From: Alphaproteobacteria bacterium
GTDB lineage: Bacteria; Pseudomonadota; Alphaproteobacteria; JAJTHO01; CANGXP01
Direction: 5' to 3'
DNA length: 64,000 nt
Assembly: GCA_947457935.1 (NCBI GenBank)
Contig: CANGXP010000001.1
Coordinates: 4,065-68,064, forward strand
Both the position numbers and the translations under genes were made by a program. This document shows positions 6,768-30,834 of the stretch, in pieces (the first letter of the stretch is position 1; every line of letters begins with the position of its first letter). The notes beneath the pieces are model-generated. The model saw only the letters and a program-made list of their open reading frames with translations. It ran no database searches and was not told the DNA's origin.

Positions 6768-6880
6768 GTGTTCGGTATTCGGTTTTAAGAATGCGCCAAA
6801 ATGTTGATTTTTCTTGTTTCCTCTGCCATTGTATCAGTGCCTATACTCTTTCCAAAACCTAAAACCGAACACCTAAAACC
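6760..6880. repeat. Inverted-repeat element with arms of four tandem 7-mers (GGTTTTA/GGTGTTC type)
   Basis: GGTTTTAGGTGTTCGG (6760-6775) is the exact reverse complement of CCGAACACCTAAAACC (6865-6880); the left arm contains the cobT stop codon. Confidence 0.8.
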
Positions 6881-6885
6881 TTCTT

Positions 6886-7761: not shown

Positions 7762-7764
7762 TGC

Positions 7765-11187: not shown

Positions 11188-11300
11188 GAGGGAAGAGTCG
11201 CGAGGCACGAGGAACAAGAGCCTTATACGTAGCGGAACAAACAATAGCCTACAAGACTAAATTTTTCCCCTCGTGCCTCGTGCCTCCCTACTCGTGCCTC
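11181..11300. repeat. Inverted-repeat element built from AGGCACG/CGTGCCT heptamers between lolD and dnaE
   Basis: AGGCACGAG copies at 11182 and 11203; CTCGTGCCT copies at 11270, 11277 and 11291; the arms overlap the lolD stop and the dnaE start. Confidence 0.8.
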
Positions 11301-11968: not shown

Positions 11969-13208
11969 ACCGTAATGCCTCCACAGGGTTGATTTTTGAG
12001 GCTTTGAGAGAAGGGTAGAGGGTTGCCAGCAAGGATAATACGAGGCTCATGCTCACCACCCACCCTACTTGCCCCCAATCAAGGGCAGTGGGCAGCTTTG
12101 TTAAAAAATACACATCGCTGGGGAATAATCGCTGTTGGAAAATTTTTTCCAAAAACCCGCGAATATTTTCAAGATTTTCTGTCACCAGCAAGCCCAAGAC
12201 AAAGCCACTCAACGTTCCCACCACGCCTATTCGCATGCCACACAACACAAAAATACGCAAGATACTGCGTGGCGGCAGCCCGAGGGTCTGCAAAATCGCG
12301 ATGTCCATGGTTTTGTTTTTCACCAGCATCACCAAACTGGAAATAATGTTAAATGCCGCAACCATGATAATCAGGCTGAGGATTATAAACATCACATTGC
12401 GTTCCACCTCAACCGCGCTGAAAAAGCTACTGTTGGCTTGTCGCCAATCGCGCAATAATACAGCGCGGTTCAGCGTGGCATTAAGGGTTTTTGTGGTGTC
12501 TGCAACCGCATCCACATCATCAAGTTGCAGAGATAAGCTATCCACATTTCCTTTGGGGAGGCGAAAAAACACTTCTGCCAACGGTTGCGGCATAAAAATA
12601 AACCGCGCATCATATTCATACATCCCCACCGAAAAAATGTTGATAATGCGATAGTCCTTAAGGCGCGGCAGTGTGCCGAATCCTGTTTGCGTAAAGTTAG
12701 GCGCAACCAGCGTGAGCGTATCCCCAATCCGCAAATTAAGGCTTTCCGCCATCTTATCGCCGATGATAATCCCATCAGCATCGCTAAACGGTTGCGTATT
12801 TTTGTCCTCTAAAGAAGCAAATACTTTCGGGTGGGCTTTGAGGCTCTCTAAGCTCACGCCGCGCACCATTACGCCTAAAGCCTTTTCTCCCCGCAGAATC
12901 ATCGCTTGCCGCTCAATTTGCGGAATTACGCTTATAACATGGGGAAGCTTCTGAAGTGTGGGCAATAGGTCATCGTAATCCGCCAGCGTGCCTTCCACGG
13001 AATATACACTCACATGCCCATTCAGGCCGAAGATTTGCTTCATCAACTCCGCACGAAAGCCATTCATCACCGACATAACAACAATCAACGTCGCAACGCC
13101 TAAAGCAATCCCCACAAGAGAAAACCCCGCGATAACAGACAAAAACCCGTCGTTATTACGGGGTTTTAAGAAGCGTTTGGCTATAAGGCGTTCGGTGGCA
13201 CTAATCAT
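11961..13208 (-). CDS. lolC: Lipoprotein-releasing ABC transporter permease LolC/E
   Basis: [52 protein letters not shown]. Confidence 0.93.
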   Translation of the reverse strand: MISATERLIAKRFLKPRNNDGFLSVIAGFSLVGIALGVATLIVVMSVMNGFRAELMKQIFGLNGHVSVYSVEGTLADYDDLLPTLQKLPHVISVIPQIERQAMILRGEKALGVMVRGVSLESLKAHPKVFASLEDKNTQPFSDADGIIIGDKMAESLNLRIGDTLTLVAPNFTQTGFGTLPRLKDYRIINIFSVGMYEYDARFIFMPQPLAEVFFRLPKGNVDSLSLQLDDVDAVADTTKTLNATLNRAVLLRDWRQANSSFFSAVEVERNVMFIILSLIIMVAAFNIISSLVMLVKNKTMDIAILQTLGLPPRSILRIFVLCGMRIGVVGTLSGFVLGLLVTENLENIRGFLEKIFQQRLFPSDVYFLTKLPTALDWGQVGWVVSMSLVLSLLATLYPSLKASKINPVEALRYV

Positions 13209-15257: not shown

Positions 15258-17297
15258 TTATTCCGCCGCCGTGGCACTCACCTGCTTCATCGCGTCTTTG
15301 ATGCGTTTTTTCTGCTCATTTTGCTGATGCTCTTCAATCCGTTTTTGCCGCATAAATTCTGGCATTGTTGGCGCAGGCGGATATTTACCCACACCGCCCC
15401 GTGCAGGATCTGGCGCAACAAGATATTTCAATTTTTTATGTTTAAAAAATGCGGGTGTGTCGCACAAAATTGGCTTATTCATATGGCTTTGCATCAACAC
15501 ATAGTGCTTGCCAGGTTCAATAGACATAAAGTCTTCAGGGCGAATGAGCGGCTGCCCCTGCATAGAACGCTGCATGTTCACCGCAAAGGGGTTTGTTTGC
15601 TTTGATAAACCAATGGTACGGCTTTTTGATTTTGTCTCCAGCGTCCGTTGCCCCACCATCTCTGAAAACCGCTTGGCTGTCACCTCGTTGTTCAACGTGA
15701 GTACCACTTTTGCCGCTGTGGTGGAAATAACCGTCTCGGTTTCATCCTTGCCATACTTTGACTGAATTTGCCCTAAATCCTGCCCAATCATCAGATAACT
15801 CACCCGCTGCCCCCGTCCTACGGCTGGTCCATCAAGCAAGGCTTGGAGTTTTGGCATTTGCGGAAACTCATCGAGGACAAAAATCGCATCACAAGGGCCT
15901 ACCTTTTGCCCATCGCGTGTTGTTGCCCCCGGTTTGTGTGCAACCAGCCATGCTGACAATGCTTCTACCAGCAATCCTGTAATTTTACCCAAAGCGCGAG
16001 CATCTTCTTGATTTACGCAAAGATACAACGATAACGGCTTCATCTCCCCCGTTGTGGGGTCTGTAATCCCGCGCACGTCCATAAACGAGAAATCACTTTT
16101 CTCCGTACGCGCCCGAATCGCGCTATTTTTAAAGACAATAAGTCCGCCATCTAAGCTGGACAAAATAGAGCCACGCTCTTTATCAGGTGTTTGTGCTAAC
16201 TGCGTAAATTCGTTCACCGCTCGCCCTGAATAGCCATATTCTCGCGCTTCTTTCACGGCATCCATGAGAAAATCTTTCACCACGTCGGCTGTCATGGCCG
16301 CCATGGGATTACTTTTTTTCAACGCTTCCACTTTATCGGCCGCGCTTAACAACCCTTCCGTCATCCAATCAATAAGCATCGGGATAGAGGCTTCACACCC
16401 CACCCACTCCTCTGGAATGCCCTTGTAATTGCCACTTTCACATTTCGCGACAATGTAATGCATAAAGCCCGCCATCGCCGCACGACCTTTTTTCGTCCAG
16501 TGCGGATCCGCCTGTCCTGTTGGCTCTTCAATAATAACGTTGGTGAGACGATCAATATACAAATCGCGGTTAGGCCCCATAGGCGGCATACACAGTGGCG
16601 ATAGCGGATTCCAACGGGGATAAAAAATGCCTTTTTCAGGGTCATCTTGCGCCGCCCACTCCAGTTTTAAACACACGCTGTGCAAAGAGCGATAGCCACT
16701 TGTGAGGTCAAACAACTCAGGCTTCACATCATTTACGATAATCGAGGCTTTATCACAGGTGAGAATGGTGGGCACAACAATCGCCACCGTTTTCCCTGTT
16801 CCAGGTGGCGCAACGCACAGCACAGAAAGCGTCTCACTTAATTGTAATAGTTTATTCCGCCATTCACCCAATACAATAATATTCCCAAACAGCTTCATTT
16901 TAACGACATCATCGTTGCGAGACAACCGCGCCGAGCCAAACATTGTTTCCTGCAGACTGTATGGATTTTTAACAAGCATGACAAATAGTAGTGCTGCACC
17001 CCCGAAAAAAGCAGTGACTATTTCTACTGGCACCCCCCCCAAACGCCAATCAACGGGCATATTAGGATTGCTATTGGCAATCCAATATTCATGGAATGCA
17101 AAAAAATCGCTAGGATTAATTAGTTTAAGCCAATATTCCCCCACAGCGTTTACAATCGGCGCACTCACGCCGTAACGCACAAACGTGAAAATAGATGTAA
17201 GTAGCAGCAACAAAAGAAAAAAAGTGAGAACGCCAAACACTATAGATTTTACAATCCATATCTTGGCTAAGCCTGATTCTCCAAGATCACTTTTCAT
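15258..17297 (-). CDS. virD4: Type IV secretion coupling protein VirD4/TraG
   Basis: Two N-terminal TM segments, VAPPGTGKT Walker A, VNDVKPEL, FVLDEFPQMPKL Walker B, QDLGQI..KYG. Confidence 0.93.
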   Translation of the reverse strand: MKSDLGESGLAKIWIVKSIVFGVLTFFLLLLLLTSIFTFVRYGVSAPIVNAVGEYWLKLINPSDFFAFHEYWIANSNPNMPVDWRLGGVPVEIVTAFFGGAALLFVMLVKNPYSLQETMFGSARLSRNDDVVKMKLFGNIIVLGEWRNKLLQLSETLSVLCVAPPGTGKTVAIVVPTILTCDKASIIVNDVKPELFDLTSGYRSLHSVCLKLEWAAQDDPEKGIFYPRWNPLSPLCMPPMGPNRDLYIDRLTNVIIEEPTGQADPHWTKKGRAAMAGFMHYIVAKCESGNYKGIPEEWVGCEASIPMLIDWMTEGLLSAADKVEALKKSNPMAAMTADVVKDFLMDAVKEAREYGYSGRAVNEFTQLAQTPDKERGSILSSLDGGLIVFKNSAIRARTEKSDFSFMDVRGITDPTTGEMKPLSLYLCVNQEDARALGKITGLLVEALSAWLVAHKPGATTRDGQKVGPCDAIFVLDEFPQMPKLQALLDGPAVGRGQRVSYLMIGQDLGQIQSKYGKDETETVISTTAAKVVLTLNNEVTAKRFSEMVGQRTLETKSKSRTIGLSKQTNPFAVNMQRSMQGQPLIRPEDFMSIEPGKHYVLMQSHMNKPILCDTPAFFKHKKLKYLVAPDPARGGVGKYPPAPTMPEFMRQKRIEEHQQNEQKKRIKDAMKQVSATAAE

Positions 17298-17308: not shown

Positions 17309-18376
17309 TTACACAGAAGCAGAAACAGGGTTGCTTGCCTGTGTCTTTGCTTCTGATCGTATTGTTTTTTCGATGATATTCGGCGCATCTACTGCACTAA
17401 TTACACGCTGTCCAGAGCTTCTATCAATCTGTACAATTCGCCCAAAAGAGCGAGAGAGGATCTCAATCACAGCATCCGCATCCAAATTCGGGTTTTCCTG
17501 TGTTAAATTTTGCCAAAATGCACGCAAAGCCATCTCAGGGCTTTCTGCGTGAATAGTTGCCATAAAGTTTGAATGCCCCGTTGTCATCAAACGGTAAATA
17601 CTTTTTGAGTTGGTGACAGAAATTTCCCCGCAAATGATAATATCAGGTGTCATTCGCACCACGGAATCGAGAACGTGCGAATACGTCATTTTATTTGTGC
17701 CTGCTGTTCTTGAGACAACAAGATGCACGCGGTTCGCGTGAGGCACAATCACCTCCCGTGTATCTTCCACGGTAATAATACGCCGATCCCTTGGAATAAA
17801 TTCCACCAAGGCGTTCAGGAATGTTGTTTTCCCCGTTGATGTTGCCCCTGAAATTAGAACTGCCTCGCCGTTACTAATTGCACCAATCAAATCCTCATAA
17901 ACGTAGTCACTATAACGATGTTTATCTAACCCGCGATGCGCATCAAGCTCTTCTCGCTTGACTTCTTTAGTAAGCCTAAAATCATCCAAGACGAATTTTT
18001 TATCCGCATTAAAACGACGAATACACAAAGCCATCCCATGCGTATCGCCCATCTCGTAGCGCACATTAGGGCCAATAACTGCTTGGAAACGATGCCCCCC
18101 TGGTAAGGTAGCGGATAAAATCGGCAGTTGATTCACATCAAAATCTTGGTCTGTCACGTTCGCTAACATCCGACAAAGCGAAAAAATCCCGCGAATACTT
18201 ACCTCTGGAGCTGTTTGTGTAACCCAACCTTTCCCTATGTACTTAATACAAATTTCTTCAGGGCGATTAATCGATATTTCTTCGACATCTTTGTTTTCGT
18301 AATACACCTTGAGGGGTTTGAGCGCATTAAGCAGCAACTCATTTGACATGGTTGTGGTTTTAAACACGTCGCTCAT
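17309..18376 (-). CDS. virB11: Type IV secretion ATPase VirB11
   Basis: EISINRP, PILSATLPGGHRFQAV, SGATSTGKTTFLNAL, ITVEDTRE, RMTPDIIICGE. Confidence 0.9.
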   Translation of the reverse strand: MSDVFKTTTMSNELLLNALKPLKVYYENKDVEEISINRPEEICIKYIGKGWVTQTAPEVSIRGIFSLCRMLANVTDQDFDVNQLPILSATLPGGHRFQAVIGPNVRYEMGDTHGMALCIRRFNADKKFVLDDFRLTKEVKREELDAHRGLDKHRYSDYVYEDLIGAISNGEAVLISGATSTGKTTFLNALVEFIPRDRRIITVEDTREVIVPHANRVHLVVSRTAGTNKMTYSHVLDSVVRMTPDIIICGEISVTNSKSIYRLMTTGHSNFMATIHAESPEMALRAFWQNLTQENPNLDADAVIEILSRSFGRIVQIDRSSGQRVISAVDAPNIIEKTIRSEAKTQASNPVSASV

Positions 18377-18380
18377 ACTA

Positions 18381-19973
18381 TTATTTCCCTACAGTAGGCG
18401 GCGGCCCATAGTTAAACTGCGAACTGCCTTGCACAGGTGCAAACGCTTGGTTCGTTGGTGCACCTGCCGCTTCATTTTTTGTTCCCAGTTGCGCCGCATT
18501 ACCCAAAACTTCTGCTAGTTTTTGTGTTCCTGTGCCTAAATCGCCGCGTTGCAGTGCAAAGACTAATTGTCTTGCTTTTTCTAACGTTTCATTTGTTGCT
18601 GCAGAAGACGTGAGCAAGGTTGGCGTTTTCATCACCAAGTCTTGCGTCGGTGTTAGCAAAAAGCGCGTGCCACTGGGGATAGTGAGAATGGGTGTGGTGT
18701 CCACATAATCATTCAACAAGCGTTTAGCCTGAGAGGCAAATTCTTGCGCCAAATCCCGTCCTGCTTTTTGACCCGGCGTAAGCGTTTCTGAGGTTGTTGT
18801 GCCAGAACTCCCGCCACTATTGACGCCGCTAAAAGTCGTCGTCGTAGAATCCTTATTCGACAAGGCATACTCTAAACCAATGCCGATAGACGCAACCAAT
18901 AAAGGCGCAACATATCGATTGAACAACCGATAGTCTATGTAACCCACCATTCCATTGCGTCCCATGGGGTCACTTGCAGGCGATTGCACGGTAATATTAA
19001 CACCATCGGGACGAATAATCCGTGTCCATACAGCATCTAAACGTGACCGTCCTGTACGGCCTAAGCTTTGCGATGTGCCAATTAATCGTGATCCTGCGGG
19101 GATAAGAATATTCCGACCAGACGCACTGTAGACGTGATTCTCCACAATAGCCGTCATGCGACCACCACCAATTTGGGTGTTAATGGTGCTTTCTAAAACT
19201 GCAGGAATATATCTATCTGAGGTAATCATGCGATCCCGATTAACAGGATACGATGAAACTATCGGATCATACCCATAGGAGGCGTAGTCCTCATCGCTCA
19301 TTTTCCAACCTGCATTAACCCGATCTCCCGTTTGCAGTACCTGTAACGTGCCTGTTTTTCGCTGTTCTTGCAAGCGTTGGGCATTAATATACTCAAACGA
19401 AGGCGTGTACGGGATCACCTGTTCTGGCACTTGCAATGGCGGCGGCGGTGCATCTACTAACGCTTCACCAACGCCTGAAATTTGGACAAGTAAAGGGCTA
19501 TTTTTTGCACTGTGCGTTACAATAATCGTTGTTTGGTATGCACGCGGTTCTTGCGGGCGAAATGTCACATCAATGCGACAACTAGTTTTGTTGGGCCCCA
19601 TAATAAGCCCATCAGCACATGCCCCCCCTAGAGTAAACACGCTTTGTTCACTTGCCAGCTGCACTTGTTGAATGGTAAGTGGCTCATCCCCTTCTACGTT
19701 TAAGATAACGGGCAGCGTAAGCTCTCCACCAACTTTAACTCCTGAAAAAGTAAGCGTACTAGTAAGCGTTGCCAATGATGAAGGCAACGTGGGTTTTACT
19801 TCTTGCTTGTTGACCACATCAAGCAAATCGCGCACGGGATCTGCTGATTTTGGCGGCGGGGGAGCCTCTTTCTCACCACAACTCGCTAAGAATAAGCACA
19901 AAACCAAACACAGCGCGACAACAGCCTTATTGCGCTTCGTATTTAATGGACGCGATGCTATCTCGTAAAACAT
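18381..19973 (-). CDS. virB10: VirB10/TrbI-family protein with an N-terminal lipoprotein signal and an Ig-like (ASH/choice-of-anchor-D-like) domain
   Basis: C-terminal TrbI domain (IPAVLESTINT, IPAGSRLIG, WTRIIRPDG, DPMGRNGMVGYID, PILTIPSGT); lipobox FLASC at Cys32; beta-sandwich TLTFSGVKVG...CRIDVTFRP...VQISGVG. Confidence 0.85.
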   Translation of the reverse strand: MFYEIASRPLNTKRNKAVVALCLVLCLFLASCGEKEAPPPPKSADPVRDLLDVVNKQEVKPTLPSSLATLTSTLTFSGVKVGGELTLPVILNVEGDEPLTIQQVQLASEQSVFTLGGACADGLIMGPNKTSCRIDVTFRPQEPRAYQTTIIVTHSAKNSPLLVQISGVGEALVDAPPPPLQVPEQVIPYTPSFEYINAQRLQEQRKTGTLQVLQTGDRVNAGWKMSDEDYASYGYDPIVSSYPVNRDRMITSDRYIPAVLESTINTQIGGGRMTAIVENHVYSASGRNILIPAGSRLIGTSQSLGRTGRSRLDAVWTRIIRPDGVNITVQSPASDPMGRNGMVGYIDYRLFNRYVAPLLVASIGIGLEYALSNKDSTTTTFSGVNSGGSSGTTTSETLTPGQKAGRDLAQEFASQAKRLLNDYVDTTPILTIPSGTRFLLTPTQDLVMKTPTLLTSSAATNETLEKARQLVFALQRGDLGTGTQKLAEVLGNAAQLGTKNEAAGAPTNQAFAPVQGSSQFNYGPPPTVGK

Positions 19974-20033: not shown

Positions 20034-21281
20034 TTATAGTGTAGGCGTATTGAAACGAATTAATCGTGGTTTTAACAAAAGCATGTACGCGGCAGGATCC
20101 TCTGAATATGAAAGACCATATAACAATAATGGATTTTCAACCGTATGAGAGAAACTCAGAGAGACACTGTTTTTTGGTGTCATCCCCTTCGTATCGCACG
20201 ATGCTTTATTTGGATTTTGCATTGTCATGAAAAGATTTGTTGCCACGTCCACGTCCTGCGGCGTGCTCTGTGCTGTAACCGTTATAAGTCCCAAGGGGCC
20301 TGTGTCCGTAGGTGATTTACAATACGGCACCTTCGGCACATCACCCATAGAAAAGGTCAGCGGGGAAGCAGTCATCATCGTCACAATACCTGCGTCAATT
20401 TTGGTTACACTCATACCGTAGGGCGCGAAAACACTACGAAAATCCTCATTTGCTAACGCCCCTTGAAATACCCCCACACCAGAATTTGGGTCATGCGCTA
20501 TTTTTTCTAACCCCATCAAGCGCCAATCCAGCGGTTTGGTAGGCGGCATATCAAACCGCCACAATACAGCTTGATAGGCTACAACCATCTTTTCGGCTCG
20601 CAATTGTTGTAAATAGCTCTTTACGGTCGAGATACTGCCCCGCGTCAGCTGAAAAGACATCACCCGCGTAGACGCGTCAAACTCAATTTTTTTTGCACCC
20701 AAACTCTGTACTGTATTGATGATGCTTTCATAGGGGGCTTTAAGAATGTCAGGCGTTTTAGAGGATCTATTATTCCCTCCCATGTACCCCAAGGGCGGCA
20801 TAATGACGTTATACGTCTCAACACTTTCAATTTGTAAAACGCCTTGGTTCAAACGATATACAAATGCGCCTTCAGCACTAAGTTGCTCTAAGGCTGTTGC
20901 AAAATCACGCGGTAAGGACACTGCACTAAGTTTTTTATCCTGTACCGTATCAGAAATATACAATCTATACGGCACGTTCTGCATCAGCCGCAACAACACG
21001 TCTGAAAGATAGGCATCTTTTAGTGTTATGGGCGGGATAGTGGTATTGGGCAGCGGCTCTGAAACATATGCGGCCTGTAGCGCAAAAAAATTCTTTGTTG
21101 CAAGGCTGGCACGCTCTGCAATCGGCGGTATGAATTTTTTCTTATCAAAAAGCATGTCACGCGATTTTTCACTGCTTACCGCTGCTGTAACGGGTGCTTT
21201 TGTATCAACAGAAACGACCTTACAGCCCGTTATCGCAAGGATACAACAGAGTAATCCTATTTTGTGAAATCGCATCATCAT
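20034..21281 (-). CDS. Secretin-like outer-membrane lipoprotein (PilN/BfpB-like N-terminal domains, shortened C-terminus)
   Basis: Lipobox AITGC at Cys20; ITLKDAYLSDVL...FATALEQL...YRLNQGVLQI resembles a secretin N0/STN domain; VVAYQAVLWRF...LDW resembles the start of a secretin core; by-eye recognition only. Confidence 0.55.
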   Translation of the reverse strand: MMMRFHKIGLLCCILAITGCKVVSVDTKAPVTAAVSSEKSRDMLFDKKKFIPPIAERASLATKNFFALQAAYVSEPLPNTTIPPITLKDAYLSDVLLRLMQNVPYRLYISDTVQDKKLSAVSLPRDFATALEQLSAEGAFVYRLNQGVLQIESVETYNVIMPPLGYMGGNNRSSKTPDILKAPYESIINTVQSLGAKKIEFDASTRVMSFQLTRGSISTVKSYLQQLRAEKMVVAYQAVLWRFDMPPTKPLDWRLMGLEKIAHDPNSGVGVFQGALANEDFRSVFAPYGMSVTKIDAGIVTMMTASPLTFSMGDVPKVPYCKSPTDTGPLGLITVTAQSTPQDVDVATNLFMTMQNPNKASCDTKGMTPKNSVSLSFSHTVENPLLLYGLSYSEDPAAYMLLLKPRLIRFNTPTL

Positions 21282-21322: not shown

Positions 21323-22630
21323 CTACCGCCCAATCAAAGGTTCTTGAACGGGCACAGGCGTTGTTGGCACCGATGCACCAGCGCTCGTACTTACAGGCGC
21401 TGAACGGATTTGTGACGGTAACGATGGTGCAATAGAGCCTTTTGGCTTGTCTTCAAACAAATATAAATCATCATCGTTTGTAATCTTATTCCCTGTCACA
21501 CCCACGGGTGTTGAAGAGTACACACACACCACACGCGAACCGTTACGCAGGGTAAAGTTGCCAATTGCTTCAGCAATAAAAATATTCCCTGTTGACCCTG
21601 CAGTGCGTGTATTCACCATGGTGTCAACCCCATCAACCACACGGCTAATAACAGGCCTCCGCACGGTATCTGCCTTATCGCCATAATCAAAATATGTCCA
21701 AATACCATCCGTAAACACACGCAACGGCGCAATTTCAATATCTTCAGGTGTTGGCGCAAAAATCTTCAAATCAAAACGGAGATTCTCAGGACTAAATGCA
21801 ATTTTGCGAATGTAGTCAGGCGGTGTCACAATATTACTCGGCGTTGCCGCAGCACCAGACATCCCCGCATCTGTTGAAGACGGATTGGGTTGCGCATTAC
21901 CACCAAGTGGGTTTTGCGCGGCACTGCCTGCAGCAACATACACTGTAAAGTCTGTAATTTGCGTTGAATTCCACCCCTCAGAACGTACATAAAAGTTATA
22001 AATATTTCCCGATGTCCCAATAATAGTCATATTGGTATCAGCCCCTGAGTGACTCGGGCGCACAACCAAGATATTTTGCTTTACGCGTGTGGCTTCAAAC
22101 ACCATCGTATCGCCGAGAATAATCCGCTCCACGTTTTCCCACGCTGGTAGCTCAATGGTTGTGGTCATAAATTCGCGGGTACGAATCGGCATAACAAAAT
22201 CAGGTCGCCACACAAAACGCATAATACCAGGTGCCGTCTGCCCTGTGGAAGCAATCGGACTATCCCATTTTTTTTGCAATGCCCCAACAGGCAACGTTGA
22301 GCTACGTGTCATGGTGGGGAATTGACCTGATGCTTGACTATTAATATCTTGCTCTGTTCTAGCCGCCAACGGACTAGGCCCCGAAGAAGGAGCAGAGAAT
22401 TGTTGCGCTGGATCATTGAAATTTGGCACAGGGGCGGCACCGAATCCTTGGCTTGCTCCCGTCGCAGGATTGCCTAATGGGGGACGAATTTGTGCAACAG
22501 CAGTGTGTGAGAGAATACTGCACACAAGAAATCCGCTCAAAGAAATAAGGGCGGATTGTTTTTTAAGAGAACAAATGTTTTTCATAAAGATATCGCTCTT
22601 TTTGTGATTAATATTTTTAGTTTTGGGCAA
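21323..22630 (-). CDS. virB9: Type IV secretion outer-membrane core protein VirB9/TrbG
   Basis: Signal peptide, IRTREFMTTTIEL, ILGD, TNMTIIGTSGNIYNFYV, PLRVFTDGIWTYFDY, TLRNGSRVVCV. Confidence 0.88.
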   Translation of the reverse strand: MPKTKNINHKKSDIFMKNICSLKKQSALISLSGFLVCSILSHTAVAQIRPPLGNPATGASQGFGAAPVPNFNDPAQQFSAPSSGPSPLAARTEQDINSQASGQFPTMTRSSTLPVGALQKKWDSPIASTGQTAPGIMRFVWRPDFVMPIRTREFMTTTIELPAWENVERIILGDTMVFEATRVKQNILVVRPSHSGADTNMTIIGTSGNIYNFYVRSEGWNSTQITDFTVYVAAGSAAQNPLGGNAQPNPSSTDAGMSGAAATPSNIVTPPDYIRKIAFSPENLRFDLKIFAPTPEDIEIAPLRVFTDGIWTYFDYGDKADTVRRPVISRVVDGVDTMVNTRTAGSTGNIFIAEAIGNFTLRNGSRVVCVYSSTPVGVTGNKITNDDDLYLFEDKPKGSIAPSLPSQIRSAPVSTSAGASVPTTPVPVQEPLIGR

Positions 22631-23369
22631 TGCTGTAGTCCAACACTGTAAAGCCTAAAGGGTTAAAATATTGTTCTGCCAGTGCAACATTTCGGGCGAC
22701 ATAATCAACACGTAGTTGCGCCCTCCATTTTCCTTTTAACAAAACATTCCCCAGCCTATCTGTGTCAGTCGTTACATATTCTACCTCAACGTAGTTTTGG
22801 CTTTTGCTCACCGTGCTTGTAATGTCTACACTACGGCTAATGCCTTTTTGCTGCAGCTCTTGATATGGCTGATTAATCGACATCAAAAACGTATTATACT
22901 CCGCTTCAGGCATACGATATTTCAGATACTCAACCCAGCGGCGTTGTTGATCTGTTTGATCCAAAATAATTTCTTCCCGAACCTTTACATATTCACCTGC
23001 CATTTTCTCTGTGAACAGTTGAATCCCTGCTTGCCCTTTAATAAAAGGCTGAATTTGTACTATTTGCTCGTTTTTATCGTTGAATGTCACTAGCATCGGC
23101 TCAATTTTTTTGAGCGGTACCAAGGCATATACCGTCAACACCAAAACAATATTCAGCAACATGCTCATGTAAAACGCGACCGCAAACACACGCGTTGTCC
23201 ACAAATATCGACGCCCCTCCAGCACAGGAATACGCACATCTTTGGGGTACGCGCCTAGCGTATCTTTATGATCGCCATTAGAAGCAGACTTTAACAAAGG
23301 ATCAATCCCCTCTTGCGGTGCAACGGGTCTGAAATATCCTTTAAGCTTTTGTCCTAGGTTCTCACTCAT
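22617..23369 (-). CDS. virB8: Type IV secretion inner-membrane protein VirB8
   Basis: Single TM followed by LVPLKKIEPMLV, EYVKVRE, and C-terminal NPLGFTVLDY. Confidence 0.88.
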   Translation of the reverse strand: MSENLGQKLKGYFRPVAPQEGIDPLLKSASNGDHKDTLGAYPKDVRIPVLEGRRYLWTTRVFAVAFYMSMLLNIVLVLTVYALVPLKKIEPMLVTFNDKNEQIVQIQPFIKGQAGIQLFTEKMAGEYVKVREEIILDQTDQQRRWVEYLKYRMPEAEYNTFLMSINQPYQELQQKGISRSVDITSTVSKSQNYVEVEYVTTDTDRLGNVLLKGKWRAQLRVDYVARNVALAEQYFNPLGFTVLDYSIAQN

Positions 23370-23370: not shown

Positions 23371-23562
23371 TTATGATTGCTTCTGCCATCCGTTATAATT
23401 TTGCGGTACTTCTAAGCACGCACAAGGACTCCGTTTTAAATCATCATTGTCGCGTCCAATCCCCACAGGGTCGGGCAATGTTTCGCTGCCACGGACAAAA
23501 TCACATCCAGATACAAGCAACAACGCTGCTACGCCGCACCAGAGATATTTTTTGTTTTTCAT
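23371..23562 (-). CDS. virB7: Small lipoprotein, VirB7-like
   Basis: 63 aa, lipobox LVSGC at Cys20, KRSPCAC motif, position immediately upstream of virB8. Confidence 0.7.
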   Translation of the reverse strand: MKNKKYLWCGVAALLLVSGCDFVRGSETLPDPVGIGRDNDDLKRSPCACLEVPQNYNGWQKQS

Positions 23563-23868: not shown

Positions 23869-24891
23869 CTAGTACTGCCTGTCAAAATGTTCTCTATTAA
23901 TTGTCTGCATACTTTTTACAGGGGCGCATACAGAATGCATGGCTTCCATGGTTTGCTTCAAAAAAACACGTTCTTGTTTTAGTGCATTGAGGTTCACAAG
24001 ATCTTGGCGCACACACCCAGGCAAAACAGTCGGCTTATCTTTGACAGATGTATCAGGCGCAATACATGGCTTCATAGAATTTTTGATAAGCTCGCTCATT
24101 ACCTTTTTAAGATGCTCTACATAAACAGGAATATTTGACAAATACGTTAGAGATGCCGCCGCACAATTTAAATTTTGCTGCTGTAGAACTGCTCTTACGC
24201 ACCAATCTTTCCGCGTTGTCTCCGCTGGCGAATATTGGCTTTTCGCGCTCCCCCTGCCCTGCTCATCGTAATAACCGTAAAGCAGCGCAGTCCCCAAGAC
24301 ATACTTCGTCGCACATTGTTTAAACTGCTCTGTTTTCTTATCTGTACCACAAATTGTATCCAGCGTGGTTGATTGCGAAACTTCTTCAATACTACGCAAA
24401 CAAGAAGAAGGACTGGTAAGGTCAATTAAATCTGTGTTTGGCCCTTGCGTGGCAAGTTCTCTTTTTTGTGCTTCATGCCCCAAATTGAGCACGGAATCAG
24501 GATTCTTTAAAACTTCCTGCAGTCCGTCAGGTGGCGGGGAAGGTAAAGTTTTAACAACACTTTCTCCCCATATTTTAGATTTTCTCTCTTCATCTTTACG
24601 TTTCTCCTCGTGCAATTTTTTTTGCTCTTCAGCCGTAATCTCTTTTGATTTATTGACAATATAACGACCTACATCAAAAATACAGATAGCACGCGTACCG
24701 CAAATATTAGGGCACTTCATAAACAACATAATCTTTTCCCCAGGAGGGAAATAGCAAGATGGAATAGCAGCTAATGCCCGGCAAACAACAGGACAAATGA
24801 AGAACTGACCGCTTTCTGCACGTTTTGGGGGCATCACGATAAACGCAAAGCATACAATAACGATACATAATCTTGTTAGGTTGTTAAGCAC
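23869..24891 (-). CDS. Secreted Cys-rich hypothetical protein in the T4SS operon (340 aa)
   Basis: N-terminal signal peptide, many Cys residues; C-terminal motifs shared with 24916-26526. Confidence 0.7.
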   Translation of the reverse strand: MLNNLTRLCIVIVCFAFIVMPPKRAESGQFFICPVVCRALAAIPSCYFPPGEKIMLFMKCPNICGTRAICIFDVGRYIVNKSKEITAEEQKKLHEEKRKDEERKSKIWGESVVKTLPSPPPDGLQEVLKNPDSVLNLGHEAQKRELATQGPNTDLIDLTSPSSCLRSIEEVSQSTTLDTICGTDKKTEQFKQCATKYVLGTALLYGYYDEQGRGSAKSQYSPAETTRKDWCVRAVLQQQNLNCAAASLTYLSNIPVYVEHLKKVMSELIKNSMKPCIAPDTSVKDKPTVLPGCVRQDLVNLNALKQERVFLKQTMEAMHSVCAPVKSMQTINREHFDRQY

Positions 24892-24915
24892 GTATTTGCC
24901 CTTTTATTGCCTTGC

Positions 24916-26526
24916 TTATCGACATTCTGTGGGGGTTCCGATTAACCCTTTAATGCCTTCACAGGCAGTGCAAAGAGCAGTCACCTCCCCCATTGCCAAA
25001 TCTGCCGTCAACCCATAAAACTCGATAGCGGCAAGTGACTGAATATCACCCCGAACGCTTCCAGAATTCGCCACGACCTCTGTTAAGGTAGGACATAACG
25101 ATTTAGGCAAGTTTTGCCCTGCAACAACACATTCTCCAGAATTGGACACCAATTGCTGCGCTTTAATGGCGCTATTATTGACATAATTCAGAGAAGTGGT
25201 CGCACATTTCAAAGCACAGTTACGGGCGGCATCTAAGCGATACCGCGTTACTGTTGCTTGGCATTCTGCCTTAGGCGCATTACTGCCTCTCCCCGTCAGT
25301 CCCTTCTCAATAGCAGCATACATCTTATCTGCTGTTGCTGCACCTGTGTCAGCACCTCCAGACAGCTTCTTGTCCTTAAAGACTTTTAGCTTGCCAGAAT
25401 TATTTTGATCACTACCACCCGCATTAGGATTACTAATATCAAATCCTGGATTAAGGTTTATACTCGCCTCTGCAGCCTTTAATGTAAACTGAGCTGGGTC
25501 AGAATTCTCTCCACCGTTAAATGGGCCCATTACAGAAATAATCGTGCCTGCAATCTGCTGCGCCGTTGTAATGGGGCTTCCACCTGATCCTATTTGTGTA
25601 AAAGCGTTTGTAAAAACTTGGATACTTGAAAAAACTACATTAATCAAACTTTGGGCCTGCGCCTGAAAATTTCCAAGATCTGTAGCAAACTGTTTTAGGC
25701 CAGCGTCCCCTGTAATTTCGCCAATAGCGCCTGTAAAAAGCTGAACTGTACTCAGTGCTTGCAATCCTGTGTCCAAAATTCCTTGAGACGAGTTAGCAGA
25801 AAAACCATTCGGAGTACTCCCCCCAAACCATTGAGGGTTCTCGCTACGGACAGACGCCTGAAACGACGTTTCACCATATCTGCCAAGCGAATGTGCCATG
25901 AATTTTGCAAGATCAACAGGCGGTGCAGTTGTGCCTAAAACGCTGTTGATCCGCTTTTGATTTTTACACTGCTCAAACATTGATTTGAGCTGCTGTGTCA
26001 TTGTCATTAACTGCTGAATATTTGTAACGGTATTTGACGGATCACTAACGAAAACGCCTAAAATGCCAAGGAATGGCCCTAATAGACTGAATATACCTGC
26101 TGCAATATTCAATAAGTCGGAAATAAATCCGGGTGTCATGCAAATCAGTTGGCTCAGATACGGATTATCCGCAAAAAATTTATCAAAATCGGGTAGATCC
26201 CATTTTCCTTCCGTGCCCGTTAATTTTGGGACAAGATCGGATGGAACAAAACTAATCCCCACTTGCCCTGGTGCGGGCGGCCCTATTTGAGGCGCTATGC
26301 TTAAATTTCCTGAAAACGTTGCAGATGTGGCTGCATTCGGAACAAAAACAGTCGGCTGCGAGGCAAAATTAATAACACTGCCAACTTTAGCATCAGGATT
26401 CAGTTGTCCGTTTGCATCAACAAGAGGCACAGCAGGCAGAGCCCCCTGCGCCGCCATCGCCACAGGGGCACCGTGCAAAAACAGTGATATAGCAACTAAT
26501 AATACGGCAATACAACGATGGAACAT
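24916..26526 (-). CDS. Secreted hypothetical protein in the T4SS operon (536 aa), possibly VirB5/TrbJ-like
   Basis: Signal peptide, hydrophobic hairpin, NIQQLMTMTQQLKSM coiled segment, Cys-rich C-terminus. Confidence 0.7.
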   Translation of the reverse strand: MFHRCIAVLLVAISLFLHGAPVAMAAQGALPAVPLVDANGQLNPDAKVGSVINFASQPTVFVPNAATSATFSGNLSIAPQIGPPAPGQVGISFVPSDLVPKLTGTEGKWDLPDFDKFFADNPYLSQLICMTPGFISDLLNIAAGIFSLLGPFLGILGVFVSDPSNTVTNIQQLMTMTQQLKSMFEQCKNQKRINSVLGTTAPPVDLAKFMAHSLGRYGETSFQASVRSENPQWFGGSTPNGFSANSSQGILDTGLQALSTVQLFTGAIGEITGDAGLKQFATDLGNFQAQAQSLINVVFSSIQVFTNAFTQIGSGGSPITTAQQIAGTIISVMGPFNGGENSDPAQFTLKAAEASINLNPGFDISNPNAGGSDQNNSGKLKVFKDKKLSGGADTGAATADKMYAAIEKGLTGRGSNAPKAECQATVTRYRLDAARNCALKCATTSLNYVNNSAIKAQQLVSNSGECVVAGQNLPKSLCPTLTEVVANSGSVRGDIQSLAAIEFYGLTADLAMGEVTALCTACEGIKGLIGTPTECR

Positions 26527-26579: not shown

Positions 26580-29027
26580 TCAAGTTGAATCTAAATAAAT
26601 ATTGAGCCAATCGGGGCCTGCATCGCGCATCAACTGCTCTGCAAGGCTTCGTGAAGCCTGATCTGAATAAAACACCCGAATTAAGGGACCCAGCGCATTC
26701 AAGTTATTGTCTAAAATAACGGACTCACCCGTTGCTCGTTTCATCAAAACAGAATAGCGCATCCCCCGCGCACTTGGTAACTTGCCTTTTATATACGCCC
26801 ACTCACGGTCTGTTAAACCCCAATCGGCATACTCGCGCTCTTGCGCTTGGGGGTTTTGAAAGAAGAACGTGGTTTGTGCTTGTCCGCGAATGGCTTCACC
26901 CAATCCTGCTTGCACAATCGCTTCAGGACGTTGAAAGGCGGAGATAATCGCCGAACTCTTTTTGCGATATTCTTGCAACATCTGCATAAAATAGTTGCGG
27001 AAAATCGGGTGCTTCACCACAGGTTCTGTTTCATCGATAAAGATGAGCGCAGGGGCTTGTAATTCACTAATCGCTGCCTGAATACGGTGCATCAGGTATA
27101 AAATAACTGCCCGCGCCAAATCGTCATGCTCATAAATCCGCGTAAAATCAAGAATAACAAGGCGAGTGGATGTTAAATCTAGTGTATCTTGCTGCGCATT
27201 AAAAATTTTGCCATACACAGCAGGATCAACCCATTTATTCAATCCCTTACGCAGCGGACGTGCCTTGCTGAAACATGCATCATAAATATTCGCGAGAGAC
27301 CGTTTTTCAAACGGCAGTCCCGGGTTTTCAAACGCTGCTTCAATTGCAAAACCAATTTCTTCAATCGAATCAGGGTCTTCGCATTCTGATAACGCTTGTA
27401 AGAAGGCACGCAAAAACGATCTATTTTGTACGTTGTCGGTACATTGGAAGGGATTCAACGCTGATTCCGTGCCCTCCATGTCCGATCCTTCAAAGGTAAT
27501 GTAACTGCCATTCACCGCATTACAAAAAATGTACGCGCCCCCATGTCTATCCACCATGTAACAGCGTAATTTTTCATGGCGCATTGCCATGGCGGTAAGG
27601 AAGTTGATGAGCGTGGTTTTTCCACTCCCCGTAGGGCCGATCGCCACCGCGTGTGCAACCGCCGCCTTTGCTTCACTAATATGAAACTGAAAGGCGTACG
27701 CCGTACCCGAAGACGTGCGGAACGTTGTAATAGGACCATCCCCCCAATCAGAATTGCGCAGTCCAATTGGCGGGCGTTCTAAGGTTAAGTGATTCGCTAT
27801 GTTGCGTGAAAAAAGTTTATAGGGTCTTGGCCAAATTTTATAGCCGGGGAACTGACAAAACCAACTTGCTTGCGCTGCTGCGCTTTCGTGCACAGGGGAA
27901 ATCCCAAAGCCTGTTGCAATTTGCTTGATCTCAGATTCCACCAAATCAAGCTCTTCTTGGGTTTTTCCGTACGCAAAAATCGTCAAGGAATACGCGCACA
28001 TTGCTTGCGCCGAATCACTATTTCCCTCAATCCGATCAATCGCATCTTCAAACTGGTTCACAGCACCGGGGCTAAAACGCTGCGCCATCGACAATCTGTA
28101 TTGTTGCGTCACGGTGAACGCTGCTTTCGTCTTGCTCCACGGCTCAATGGCGTGCATCACCACAATTTCGCCATGCACTGTGTTGATCGAGTTAATAAAC
28201 GCTTCGTAGGTAAAATCACCTAGCGAACGGATACCTATCACCGCACACAACAACTGTTTGTTACCGCTTCTAAAGGTCACAAGACCGTTATCCCCGCCAA
28301 ATTCCACCTGATCCGCGCATAACGCATCAGAAACCCCCGAACCAATCCCTCCTGGTTTGGGTTGTGATAGCGGACTAATCAGCCGTGCTAAAAATGCAAG
28401 GGGGCGCTTTTCCGGTTCAGGATCATGCTGTGACATTTCCTTACAACCATATTTATTCAAAATGGTTTTGGTAACCTCCACCGAACCCGCTAATTTTGAA
28501 AGCGGATTTCGCACCTTACCCGATATCGACAAAACAAGAATCTGGCGATTGTTATAGGACTGACTAAAACTATTATTCCACCGCCTTGCAATCTCGCGCA
28601 ACACAGGATTAGAATGAGTTGATTTTGCAACTAGATCCACACGTTCTCGTAATAGAAAAGAACGAATCGCCACTTCACTATCAGACAAGGTGTCAACCCA
28701 ATCCTTGCGCGCAAGAAACAAAACTTCTCTCTCGTGAGGATTGAGGAAGGTATCGTCTAATCCCGCAACTTCCAAGCATTGCGCCAGTGTGCCGTCCCTG
28801 CATGCCAAGGTCTTACCATCAGGCAAAACGCGATCAAACGGCAAAAAATCTGCTAAGCGTGTTTCTTCAGGGGCAGGCAATACCAGCTTTGAAACAGCGG
28901 GCATAATAAATCCCACAAAAGCCGCTGCACCGCCGATAATGCCAATAATCCCTGCTATAAGCGCAGTGAGGCTAAACGTTTCTGTGAACGCACTAATAAC
29001 ATCGGGAGTCGCATACTCAAGGGACAT
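26580..29027 (-). CDS. virB4: Type IV secretion ATPase VirB4
   Basis: 815 aa, AHAVAIGPTGSGKTTLINFL Walker A, LIFIDETE Walker B, ISAFQ; follows virB3. Confidence 0.93.
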   Translation of the reverse strand: MSLEYATPDVISAFTETFSLTALIAGIIGIIGGAAAFVGFIMPAVSKLVLPAPEETRLADFLPFDRVLPDGKTLACRDGTLAQCLEVAGLDDTFLNPHEREVLFLARKDWVDTLSDSEVAIRSFLLRERVDLVAKSTHSNPVLREIARRWNNSFSQSYNNRQILVLSISGKVRNPLSKLAGSVEVTKTILNKYGCKEMSQHDPEPEKRPLAFLARLISPLSQPKPGGIGSGVSDALCADQVEFGGDNGLVTFRSGNKQLLCAVIGIRSLGDFTYEAFINSINTVHGEIVVMHAIEPWSKTKAAFTVTQQYRLSMAQRFSPGAVNQFEDAIDRIEGNSDSAQAMCAYSLTIFAYGKTQEELDLVESEIKQIATGFGISPVHESAAAQASWFCQFPGYKIWPRPYKLFSRNIANHLTLERPPIGLRNSDWGDGPITTFRTSSGTAYAFQFHISEAKAAVAHAVAIGPTGSGKTTLINFLTAMAMRHEKLRCYMVDRHGGAYIFCNAVNGSYITFEGSDMEGTESALNPFQCTDNVQNRSFLRAFLQALSECEDPDSIEEIGFAIEAAFENPGLPFEKRSLANIYDACFSKARPLRKGLNKWVDPAVYGKIFNAQQDTLDLTSTRLVILDFTRIYEHDDLARAVILYLMHRIQAAISELQAPALIFIDETEPVVKHPIFRNYFMQMLQEYRKKSSAIISAFQRPEAIVQAGLGEAIRGQAQTTFFFQNPQAQEREYADWGLTDREWAYIKGKLPSARGMRYSVLMKRATGESVILDNNLNALGPLIRVFYSDQASRSLAEQLMRDAGPDWLNIYLDST

Positions 29028-29310
29028 ATTTTCTTATTTTTGGTGTTTTTATAAGGTTTTTCGTACTTTTTCGACTTACTGCCCATGCTTGTATTAATGT
29101 TGTCATATGCGGCTCTCGTGCACCTTGTGCCGCAATGAACAAATGTGACAAGAAAAAACTAGCAATAAAAATTAGAGGGCTAATTCCTGCCAAGCCCAAT
29201 CCATACACCATTAACATCGCATGCACACCCATATTTGCCATTGCAGGCATTTGAGGAGCCCAAAACATGGTGGAAGGCAGAGCAACAACGCGGAGAATTT
29301 TTTCTGGCAT
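29017..29310 (-). CDS. virB3: VirB3-like membrane protein
   Basis: 97 aa, ALPSTMFWAP, two hydrophobic segments, REPH motif; overlaps the virB4 start. Confidence 0.75.
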   Translation of the reverse strand: MPEKILRVVALPSTMFWAPQMPAMANMGVHAMLMVYGLGLAGISPLIFIASFFLSHLFIAAQGAREPHMTTLIQAWAVSRKSTKNLIKTPKIRKYVP

Positions 29311-29382
29311 AGCAGCATCCTATACAGATTTTGATAATAAAACATGAACGATTTTGGAAAATTTTGAGGAAAGTAAGAAAAA

Positions 29383-30039
29383 TTACTTTCCTGTCCCCAC
29401 AAAAGCCTCAACAAAACTTACGGCTACCGCAATAATTGCCATCCCTGCCGTGGTTGCGAATATCCAACTCCACCGAAACTTCCCGAAAATACCCAAAATC
29501 CCTACGGAAATGATTGATACCGCTGCCGCTGTATACAACAAACTTTTTGCATCTTCTGCAATATAGCTGTTGGTTCTTGTTAGCGTGTTTGAAACATCCT
29601 CAAACTTTCCAGTGCTTGTTGTATTGGCATTAATATACTCGATCCAATCTCGCGTGTACATTGCAATAGAGAGTAGAGCAAGTCCACCAATCAGCGCGAA
29701 CGCCCAACTCCACGGCATTTTACCTGTCATTGCCATGCCGCCCACACCCAACATTCCTAAAACAGCCAGACTTTTCAAAATGGGAATGGACTTTTCTAAA
29801 ACGTCGTTCCCCTGCGTTATCGCAACACCAAATACATTCGCTGCATCCGCAGGAGACTCAATCGTTAAGAAACTCAACATCATCGCAAAAAACAACAGCA
29901 TTCTATGACGCAGATGTCGATCTTGGCTATTTTGTATCACAACAGGATTCATCTTAGGTGCAAACGCGCCGCGCACAAAAAGCGTTGCGAGAAGCCCTGT
30001 AAAACAAAAATACACCCATTGTTCCATATCAAACCACAC
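29383..30039 (-). CDS. virB2: Tandem double VirB2/TrbC pilin-domain protein
   Basis: Two pilin-like hydrophobic hairpins: MTGKMPWSW and IFGKFRWSW. Confidence 0.7.
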   Translation of the reverse strand: MWFDMEQWVYFCFTGLLATLFVRGAFAPKMNPVVIQNSQDRHLRHRMLLFFAMMLSFLTIESPADAANVFGVAITQGNDVLEKSIPILKSLAVLGMLGVGGMAMTGKMPWSWAFALIGGLALLSIAMYTRDWIEYINANTTSTGKFEDVSNTLTRTNSYIAEDAKSLLYTAAAVSIISVGILGIFGKFRWSWIFATTAGMAIIAVAVSFVEAFVGTGK

Positions 30040-30043
30040 TGTC

Positions 30044-30385
30044 CTATTTCACAACAAACTGCATATAATAATATGTTCCCGATATTAGGGCTGTCGACCC
30101 GATAATACTGCCTACCCACGGCCAGCTCATCTTCCCAAACATGCCAAGTGCACCTACACCCAGCGTGGCTAATCCTGCCAATCCATATGCAATATTTTTC
30201 AAATAAACAGGTACGTTTTGAAAGCGTGGCGTAACGTAGTGAAGTGGCGTCTTCACTGCCTCGTTTTTATAATCCACGCTATAATTTGCAAAGCAATCAG
30301 TACTCAACACGCACACAAAAGCACAAAATAAAACAAAGAATAATAAGATGCGGAGTTTTTTTTGTTCAATTCTAAACATCATCAT
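30044..30385 (-). CDS. virB2: VirB2/TrbC pilin
   Basis: Signal peptide, then IAYGLAGLATLGVGALGMFGKMSWPW hairpin. Confidence 0.75.
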   Translation of the reverse strand: MMMFRIEQKKLRILLFFVLFCAFVCVLSTDCFANYSVDYKNEAVKTPLHYVTPRFQNVPVYLKNIAYGLAGLATLGVGALGMFGKMSWPWVGSIIGSTALISGTYYYMQFVVK

Positions 30386-30429
30386 AATTCCTAAATAACG
30401 CTAGTATGGCTTTGGGGTTACAGGTGAGA

Positions 30430-30834
30430 TTACGGTGGAGTCACAAAGGTATACGTTTGATTTTGATTTTCTGGTGTTTCAAACGCATCTTTTTTCCCTG
30501 TAATATACTCAACACCGTACTGTGCAGATGCCATCATCAATAATGCCCCCACAAGAATAAAAAACCTGTTCCACCGAAAACGCCCAAAAAACGCCATTGC
30601 GCCCGTTGCCGTTGCCCCTAGTCCTGCGAGTCCGAAAAGCATTTTTTGGCTATATTGCGTACCATTTTTGACGATTTTCTCTCCATTATCAAAAACATTC
30701 TTGAAGGGATCTTTTGTTATAGCCGCCGATGGCGGCGTAGGTGCAACGGGCGCAGCATTAGCAGATGCACCTATAGCACAGGCAACAATAACAACAAAAA
30801 AACAGAGCATGAACGCCTTTAGATTATTTTTCAT
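30430..30834 (-). CDS. virB2: VirB2/TrbC pilin
   Basis: Signal peptide, then LFGLAGLGATATGAMAFFGRFRWNRF hairpin. Confidence 0.75.
   Translation of the reverse strand: MKNNLKAFMLCFFVVIVACAIGASANAAPVAPTPPSAAITKDPFKNVFDNGEKIVKNGTQYSQKMLFGLAGLGATATGAMAFFGRFRWNRFFILVGALLMMASAQYGVEYITGKKDAFETPENQNQTYTFVTPP

Follow-up and report, generated by a model that had tools for sequence, protein, structure and literature searches.

Secretins and the outer-membrane cores of type IV secretion systems (T4SSs) usually count as separate solutions for crossing the outer membrane. What, then, is a secretin-like lipoprotein doing in the middle of a virB operon? The question is raised by a stretch of 64,000 nucleotides, here called the window, from an uncultured alphaproteobacterium with a 1.83-Mb, 99.6% complete genome (assembly GCA_947457935.1, contig CANGXP010000001.1, positions 4,065 to 68,064 of the forward strand). 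The subject of the analysis is the open reading frame (ORF) at 20034-21281 on the minus strand, referred to as gene X (also P0001). Its 415-residue translation starts with MMMRFHKIGLLCCILAITGC and carries a lipobox, LAITG, with the cysteine at residue 20. An earlier reading of the sequence alone had described a 415-residue lipoprotein (AITG-C20) between virB9 and virB10; the ORF, its translation and the PF03524 and PF03743 domains of the neighbours agree with this. X is a secretin-derived lipoprotein of a BfpB/MshL/PilN-like lineage, with homology spanning the whole protein. It is also a conserved component of this VirB/VirD4 clade, on the grounds of co-occurrence and synteny. The gene looks like what survives, without its gates, of a type IV pilus module that was nested in the operon.

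The family of X is missed by annotation pipelines. Pfam gave no match with X, and no PF00263 even at E<=5. NCBIfam gave no match at E<=0.1, including TIGR02519 (MshL) and TIGR02520 (PilN). A search of PDB sequences with X returned nothing, and a 13-sequence profile of the X family found only noise there. A word-indexed protein search recovered only four close homologues (64-94% identity), called "hypothetical protein" where they were named. An exhaustive phmmer search with X over 1.84 billion representatives identified 37 proteins. The nearest relatives in this set (P0006-P0013, 25-31% identity) are likewise without a Pfam domain. From P0014 onward, all proteins scanned are true secretins with PF00263 at about residues 290-480, and these align to X residues 55-290, its N-terminal domains.

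The relationship becomes evident at the level of profiles and structures. Alignment of the 13-member X family with a 25-secretin profile by hhalign gave a probability of 99.95% and E 4e-38, and it was collinear over residues 62-415. The alignment includes the terminal strand, which reads LLLKPRLIRF in X and RSELVxVLxPRVxRF in the secretins. The best solved relative of the secretin profile is BfpB, the type IVb pilus secretin of enteropathogenic Escherichia coli (9u5s, E ~1e-38). A first AlphaFold2 (AF2) model, made with five close homologues, reached a mean predicted local distance difference test score (pLDDT) of 51.8 with the N-terminus unmodelled, and was replaced. With a 38-sequence alignment the model of X reached pLDDT 82.7 and a predicted template modelling score (pTM) of 0.77. 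When this model was compared with the PDB by Foldseek, each of the top 49 matches was a secretin or the N-domain of one (E<=0.001 for 35), and the best was again BfpB 9u5s (E 7e-11). The matches include isolated N0/N1 structures (EscC 3gr5, InvG 4g08, 3ezj, PilQ N0 4ar0) and chains consisting only of the secretin domain (5tcq, 6pee and 7ofh (pIV), E 1e-5). The template modelling (TM) scores are low (<=0.33), which is expected because an elongated three-domain monomer was compared with ring-derived subunits. The N0/N3-like segments proposed by the sequence-only reading are thus borne out by the profile alignment, the AF2 model and the Foldseek matches to N0/N1 structures, and the Foldseek check that it suggested placed only secretins or their N-domains among the top 49. 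Its description of the C-terminal part as the first strands of a secretin core was right as to homology and too narrow as to extent, because the similarity continues over the whole C-terminal domain to the last strand.

The gene and the parts of its product map as follows.

20034..21281, minus strand: gene X, secretin-derived lipoprotein (ORF, hhalign, AF2 model, Foldseek, and ratio of nonsynonymous to synonymous substitution rates, dN/dS)
21222..21281, minus strand: signal peptide and lipobox LAITG with C20, residues 1-20 (read from sequence)
21075..21221, minus strand: tether and LG-like segment, residues 21-69, with the conserved motif PPIAERASLATKNFF (AF2, family alignment)
20802..21074, minus strand: N0-like domain, about residues 70-160 (family conservation, Foldseek, phmmer)
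20589..20801, minus strand: LPPLGY linker and N3-like alpha/beta domain, about residues 161-231 (secondary structure by DSSP; aligned to BfpB N3)
20037..20588, minus strand: reduced secretin core, residues 232-415 (BfpB region alignment, Foldseek)

The lipobox cysteine is nearly invariant in the 38-sequence alignment. Residues 23-47 of the model have pLDDT <50, and the model is confident from about residue 50. In BfpB, the LG domain forms a bridge between N0 and the lipid anchor and also binds BfpG, a partner protein (PMC12531336). The N0-like domain is the best-conserved part of the X family, with invariant P78, S93, L96, L99, L107, L134 and F140. In the linker, P162, P163 and G165 are invariant across the family, and the N3-like domain that follows is made of a helix (177-193), two strands (197-202 and 207-213) and a second helix (214-230), as assigned by DSSP.

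The secretin domain is where X has been cut. X, its relatives and BfpB were aligned to one profile by hmmalign, with the BfpB region limits published in PMC12114550; chain numbering is the precursor minus 17 and was cross-checked with PMC12531336. The secretin-like domain comprises about 183 residues in X, whereas BfpB has 239 and the closest full-length relatives have about 250-265, and X is therefore shorter than typical secretins, as had been noted from the sequence. The inner-barrel segments are kept (13, 30 and 13 residues in BfpB; 14, 33 and 14 in X). Gate 1 is reduced from 25 residues in BfpB to 10 in X, and gate 2 from 19 to 7. The first outer-barrel segment falls from 86 to 69 residues (about 17 shorter), the loss following a GInW motif. 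The last falls from 51 to 27, a loop of about 24 residues ahead of the final strand being gone. Full-length sister secretins keep all four elements: gate 1 (25-33 residues), gate 2 (15-19), outer-1 (83-103) and outer-2 (50-52). By this approximate alignment, X does not have a double barrel closed by gate 1 and gate 2 hairpins. We take the shortened outer-barrel loops of X to be the counterparts of the beta-lip and of the amphipathic helical loop with which secretins contact the membrane.

As judged from sequence and model, X retains the eight-strand framework of the secretin domain together with the lipid anchor, the tether, N0 and N3. The final strand LLLKPRLIRF is conserved, and X terminates five residues past the last barrel strand, with no S domain. 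C321 and C362 are the sole invariant residues of the X-family secretin domain besides L403. Each lies exactly at one of the two gate stumps, within a short predicted helix, and together they probably form a disulfide that staples the stumps. Among the families of the window's order, reduction has gone furthest in f2 (about 370 residues), whose members match the profile only over the N-terminal ~250 positions.

X is conserved along with the secretion system. In the order to which the window's genome belongs, virB9 is present once in each of 14 genomes and X in 13 of them, and in 12 the distance from virB9 downstream to X is below 1 kb. The co-occurrence with a VirB clade anticipated from the sequence is therefore found (14/14, 13/14 and, directly downstream, 12/14). 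The X ORFs are intact in all 13 genomes, which represent four families of the order, and in the sole genome without a match the contig end abuts virB9 on its downstream side. X lies between virB9 and virB10 in the loci of its close homologues, and also in five loci at 23-30% identity (L007-L010, encoding P0007, P0008, P0009 and P0010, and L038 of f2). The dN/dS of X against two relatives is 0.068 and 0.078; the neighbours have 0.077 (virB9), 0.05 (virB10) and 0.055 (virB8). X is therefore under purifying selection and is not decaying. In a class-wide sample of 401 genomes, 21 match the X-family profile, and all of these are small (1.1-2.1 Mb). The lineage carrying X is probably host-associated.

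The origin of X can be approached through sister loci. In three further families of Alphaproteobacteria, f25 (genomes G034 and G213), f157 (G166 and G310) and f177 (G186), the next gene downstream of an orthologous virB9 encodes a complete PF00263 secretin (466-662 residues). The virB9 products of these loci match the window's VirB9 at E 1e-96 to 1e-121 (phmmer). A PilB-like ATPase gene follows the secretin in G034, G213, G166 and G310, and a PilC-like gene is present in the two of these that were scanned with Pfam. In G166 and G310, virB10 stands on the same contig after the pilus module; in G034 the module is followed by virB11 and virD4, with virB10 on another contig, and in G186 the contig ends just past the secretin. 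The fullest module nested between virB9 and virB10 is that of G166 (locus L044, G166:C1:236000-255900, 1034-12506; also L031-L034). It begins with virB8, virB9, the secretin, a 182-residue protein and a 616-residue PilB/GspE-type ATPase with an MshEN/cyclic di-guanosine monophosphate motif. A 408-residue PilC/GspF-type platform protein and five small genes come next, with three pilin-like N-termini (one a weak prepilin-domain match). The locus ends with virB10 (with a lipobox and an Ig-like domain like that in the window), virB11, a PilT-like ATPase gene on the opposite strand, and virD4. A locus of this type may be one hybrid locus or two interleaved machines. The full sister secretins match MshL best among NCBIfam models (1e-32 to 1e-34), then GspD and PilN (PilN 1e-15 to 1e-25), all below the cut-offs.

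An unrooted tree could not polarise the change, and the tree was rooted on BfpB instead. In the rooted tree the X family is one clade (Shimodaira-Hasegawa-like approximate likelihood ratio test, SH-aLRT, 100) that arises among full-length secretins on a stem of 1.96 substitutions per site. The simplest history suggested by these sequences is module loss. In an ancestral VirB/VirD4 operon, the place between virB9 and virB10 would have been occupied by a type IV pilus module whose first gene encoded a full secretin. The window's order would then have lost the genes for the pilus ATPase, the platform and the pilins, and would have retained and remodelled the secretin. We infer this polarity of change. 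X had been described as inserted into the operon; it does lie between virB9 and virB10, but it does not look like a de novo insertion. It resembles a retained, gate-less part of the pilus module because a full secretin with PilB-, PilC- and pilin-like genes fills the same slot in the sister loci.

The pilus module also occurs free-standing, and one such secretin, P0014, is encoded near a TraG-like coupling protein and a lytic transglycosylase. Five free-standing clusters (L035, L036, L037, L041 and L042, in G163, G157, G183, G327 and G191) belong to genomes in which no VirB9 was found. Directly after the secretin, these clusters encode an exported protein of 430-570 residues with one to three ASH/HYDIN Ig-like domains (one with a weak T2SSC match), possibly a family of secretin partners. 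The Ig-like domain of the window's VirB10 resembles these ASH-domain proteins weakly (E 1e-4 and 0.11). The similarity was set aside as evidence of a link, being too weak, and is kept as a lead.

X is one gene of an operon read from the minus strand, in which the other assigned genes are the following.

26580..30834, minus strand: virB4, virB3 and three pilin genes of virB2 type, forming the operon's upstream part (PF03135, PF05101 (weak), PF04956)
23371..23562, minus strand: VirB7-like 63-residue lipoprotein (LVSG, C20), directly upstream of virB8 (sequence)
22617..23369, minus strand: virB8 (PF04335, E 3e-24)
21323..22630, minus strand: virB9, 435 residues by the longest ORF, upstream neighbour of X (PF03524 CagX, E 1e-25)
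18381..19973, minus strand: virB10, 530 residues, downstream neighbour of X, with lipobox FLAS (C32) and Ig-like and TrbI domains (PF03743 TrbI, E 3e-39; PF22073, PF22544)
17309-18376, minus strand: virB11 (PF00437)
15258-17297, minus strand: virD4 (PF02534)

The order of genes is three virB2-type genes, virB3, virB4, two genes for unassigned secreted proteins, the VirB7-like gene, virB8, virB9, X, virB10, virB11 and virD4. X is separated from virB9 by 41 bp and from virB10 by 60 bp. Between 17000 and 24000, sites resembling promoters or terminators are no commoner than in shuffled sequences, and none falls within either gap flanking X. The operon is flanked by housekeeping genes, with hemB, a MarR-type gene, MacB-type ABC transporter genes and dnaE on one side and acyltransferase genes and mfd on the other. 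No relaxase gene is visible.

A role for X as a VirB7 substitute was considered and rejected because the operon encodes a separate VirB7-like lipoprotein. A VirB7 is small (about 40-60 mature residues), is encoded before virB8 and caps VirB9; X has 415 residues and follows virB9. The 63-residue product of 23371-23562 fits VirB7 by size, lipobox and position and is the candidate for this function, and in each of the related loci examined a homologue of it stands ahead of virB8 (phmmer E 1e-13 to 1e-17). VirB10 is itself unusual. It has a signal peptide and lipobox (FLAS, C32) and an Ig-like domain (Cep192_D4/HYDIN/ASH-type) at residues 67-169, followed by TrbI, and lipoboxes are also present in the VirB10 orthologues of G166 and G010 (LTLTAC, FLTAC). 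From these sequences, VirB10 of the clade appears to be lipid-anchored, with the Ig-like domain replacing the usual N-terminal membrane helix.

Several other features of the operon are of interest in their own right. VirB9 (21323-22630, minus strand) has a low-complexity extension of about 135 residues, rich in Pro, Ala, Gly, Ser and Gln, ahead of its CagX domain. Its longest ORF begins with TTG; the true start may instead be an ATG that lies 15 codons downstream (MKNICSLKK). The idea of a TcpQ/BfpG-like secretin-partner domain in VirB9 was discarded: Pfam gave it no support, and the extension looks low-complexity. At 29383-30834 (minus strand) there are three consecutive virB2/TrbC-type pilin genes, and one product, of 218 residues, has a pair of TrbC domains. 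The number of such genes in relatives ranges from two to four, with products of up to 335 residues. The virB5/virB6 slot at 23869-26526 (minus strand) is occupied by two genes (536 and 340 residues) with no Pfam or NCBIfam match, and similar-sized genes fill this slot in related loci. G010, a closed genome of 1.87 Mb from the same order, has its T4SS divided among three distant loci (L039, L045 and L046), one running from virB4 to a VirB7-like gene, virB8 and virB9, another comprising virB10, virB11 and virD4, and a third with X divergent from four virB2 paralogues. The break coincides exactly with the virB9/virB10 seam.

The genome was also searched for other systems that X might serve. Its only PF00263 secretin, T2SSF gene set and pilus-type T2SSE gene belong to a Tad-like locus on contig 12 (G000 contig C12:30000-41100), assigned as Tad/Cpa by ORF order and sizes. 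This locus encodes a cpaA-like peptidase, cpaB, a 511-residue secretin, a lipoprotein, cpaE, a 552-residue ATPase and two TadB/C-type proteins. The only other strong T2SSE match in the genome is VirB11. No PilB, PilC or pilin cognate to an X-type secretin was found in the genome, which is 99.6% complete. Service to another pilus or a type II secretion system (T2SS) was rejected, since the sole candidate, the Tad locus, has its own secretin.

What would X do in a T4SS? By analogy with known accessory lipoproteins, we suggest that X is a lipid-tethered, gate-less open ring that is accessory to the T4SS outer-membrane complex, and we put the probability of this reading at roughly 0.55. Copies of X would still pack laterally against one another, with N0, N3 and the barrel strands as contacts. 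The resulting ring would be permanently open and tethered to the outer membrane without spanning it. Placed around or beneath the VirB7/VirB9/VirB10 outer-membrane core, it would provide the T4SS with an additional scaffold or a sleeve in the periplasm, like the peripheral N0 rings of Xanthomonas VirB7, DotD and CagT. The sequence-only reading had proposed a T4SS-secretin hybrid or an extra N0 ring around the core complex; it is supported in part, as to the secretin-derived domains and the tie to this VirB clade. We infer the oligomerisation of X, its location and its contact with VirB proteins.

Several observations weigh against this interpretation. The secretin domain that would have to form the ring lacks some 55-80 residues, and X has no Pfam Secretin match even at E<=5. 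The exact gate boundaries are uncertain because they come from hmmalign of divergent sequences, and one relative, P0007, retains a long outer-2 (C-terminal) loop. The deep nodes of the rooted tree have SH-aLRT values of 85-88%, and the X branches are long. The expectation that homologues would stay with virB loci also holds only in part: in G010, X is far from virB9 and virB10, yet beside four virB2 genes, and P0006 adjoins hisI on a 2.4-kb contig. Strict adjacency of X to virB9 and virB10 is therefore not required.

It is possible, though doubtful, that X forms no ring at all and acts as a monomeric or low-order lipoprotein adaptor, similar to a pilotin or chaperone, with N0 and N3 docking VirB9, the Ig-like domain of VirB10 or peptidoglycan. 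Such an adaptor would explain why N0 is the best-conserved part while the barrel part is fast-evolving and shrinking, to the point that the f2 proteins match the profile only in their N-terminal portion. The ASH/Ig-like gene that follows the secretin in free-standing clusters, weakly similar to the Ig-like domain of VirB10, points in the same direction, but the resemblance is weak (E 1e-4) and concerns a common fold. The C-terminal domain is, however, still selected within the gene, with its invariant cysteines and conserved terminal strand, and the N0-N3-barrel order is the oligomerisation framework in every solved secretin.

A working outer-membrane pore is unlikely. Under this explanation X would be an ungated channel exporting the VirB pilus or substrates, in a T4SS-secretin hybrid that replaces or extends the VirB10 cap. 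It draws on the collinear secretin homology, which includes both sets of barrel strands and the conserved last strand, on an envelope-spanning architecture that is already unusual with its apparently lipid-anchored, Ig-containing VirB10, and on the full secretins interleaved with virB genes in sister loci. Yet the loops lost in X are presumably the lip and amphipathic-loop regions that contact the membrane, and an ungated 12-17-mer would leak. Moreover, a canonical cap can form, because the CagX domain of VirB9 and the TrbI domain of VirB10 are normal and the operon also encodes a VirB7-like lipoprotein. It is very improbable that X plays no T4SS role and is left over from the lost pilus module, either serving another system such as the Tad pilus or drifting to loss: accelerated evolution, the loss of canonical motifs and the remote position of X in G010 would fit, but its dN/dS of 0.07-0.08 is as low as that of virB genes, its ORFs are intact in 13 of 14 genomes of four families with the one apparent absence at a contig edge after virB9, the Tad locus has its own 511-residue secretin, and even in G010 X adjoins virB2 genes.

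A bolder reading is conceivable but improbable. X might be an open secretin-derived sleeve integral to the VirB/VirD4 conduit, with N0 coupled to the Ig-like domain of the lipid-anchored VirB10. If so, the genes for X and VirB10 would descend as a fossil from a secretin and its partner, and those sister loci in which a full secretin and a pilus ATPase lie between virB9 and virB10 would be genuine hybrids of T4SS and type IV pilus. It would also be, to our knowledge, the first T4SS to use secretin architecture.

Comparison with known systems places X between two groups. It shares with BfpB (9u5s, its closest PDB match in both structure and sequence), MshL and R64 PilN (TIGR02519, TIGR02520) the succession of lipobox, tether, N0, N3 and secretin domain, with no S domain and no pilotin. 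It differs from them in that both gates are cut, the outer-barrel segments are about 17 and 24 residues shorter, and the gene is encoded in a virB operon of a genome with no cognate PilB, PilC or pilin genes. X shares with the post-virB9 full secretins (G034, G213, G166, G310 and G186) the slot after virB9 and a lipoprotein-secretin lineage. X is reduced and alone, whereas those proteins keep a complete PF00263 and, except in G186 with its contig end, PilB-/PilC-like genes.

The second group consists of T4SS accessory lipoproteins. Secretin-type N0 domains have been described in two of these, Xanthomonas VirB7 (PMC3093366) and Legionella DotD (PMC2951367). Like these two and Helicobacter pylori CagT, X is a T4SS lipoprotein of N0 type, and theirs are known or proposed to add an extra ring. 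Unlike X, each has a single N0 and neither an N3 domain nor a barrel remnant. In Xanthomonas the N0 domain is within VirB7 itself, whereas the window has a separate 63-residue VirB7-like lipoprotein. TrbH of IncP plasmids is a small VirB7-type lipoprotein without secretin homology, and its gene lies between trbG (the VirB9 homologue) and trbI (the VirB10 homologue). X resembles TrbH in occupying the virB9/virB10-equivalent slot and differs from it in size and in its secretin homology.

Pilus modules are also known to travel with conjugation genes. On IncI plasmids, R64 among them, the transfer genes have as neighbours those of a type IVb pilus with its secretin PilN. The statement in the sequence-only reading that secretins do not belong to VirB systems was for this reason too strong, if taken to mean that they never accompany T4SS loci. 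In TP114, a type IVb pilus module likewise lies beside conjugative T4SS genes (PMC9045228). In the R64 pil operon and TP114, a pilus module with a lipoprotein secretin travels with T4SS genes, but as a separate and complete unit. In the relatives of X the module is nested between virB9 and virB10, and in the window it is a single remodelled gene.

A literature search found precedents for N0 domains in T4SSs and no account of a virB operon with a gene derived from a secretin, and this absence is no proof of novelty. The secretin lineage and T4SS accessory lipoproteins are each known separately; their combination in a gate-less form, as predicted from these sequences, appears to be undescribed. 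The known overlaps between secretins and T4SSs involve only single N0-like domains (Xanthomonas VirB7, DotD and CagT). X represents a whole gate-less secretin that is conserved and selected in a chromosomal VirB/VirD4 operon of reduced-genome Alphaproteobacteria, and the T4SS of this order has probably borrowed an outer-membrane part. Sister lineages preserve intermediate stages, with a complete pilus module in the same operon slot, and so provide a natural series for how one envelope machine may take over a part of another. A naturally gate-less secretin is also a model for what gates and membrane loops do, and X is a concrete candidate for extra density if T4SSs of this type are imaged.

Reduction of a secretin may have occurred more than once in the class. 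Locus L040 (G120:C7), at 2950-6398, encodes a 384-residue short secretin-like protein on a very long branch. It belongs to a four-gene operon (212, 380, 384 and 168 residues) with no Pfam match and no virB genes within 14 kb. The genome, G120, measures 1.1 Mb and belongs to another family (f111), and L040 may therefore be an independent secretin reduction.

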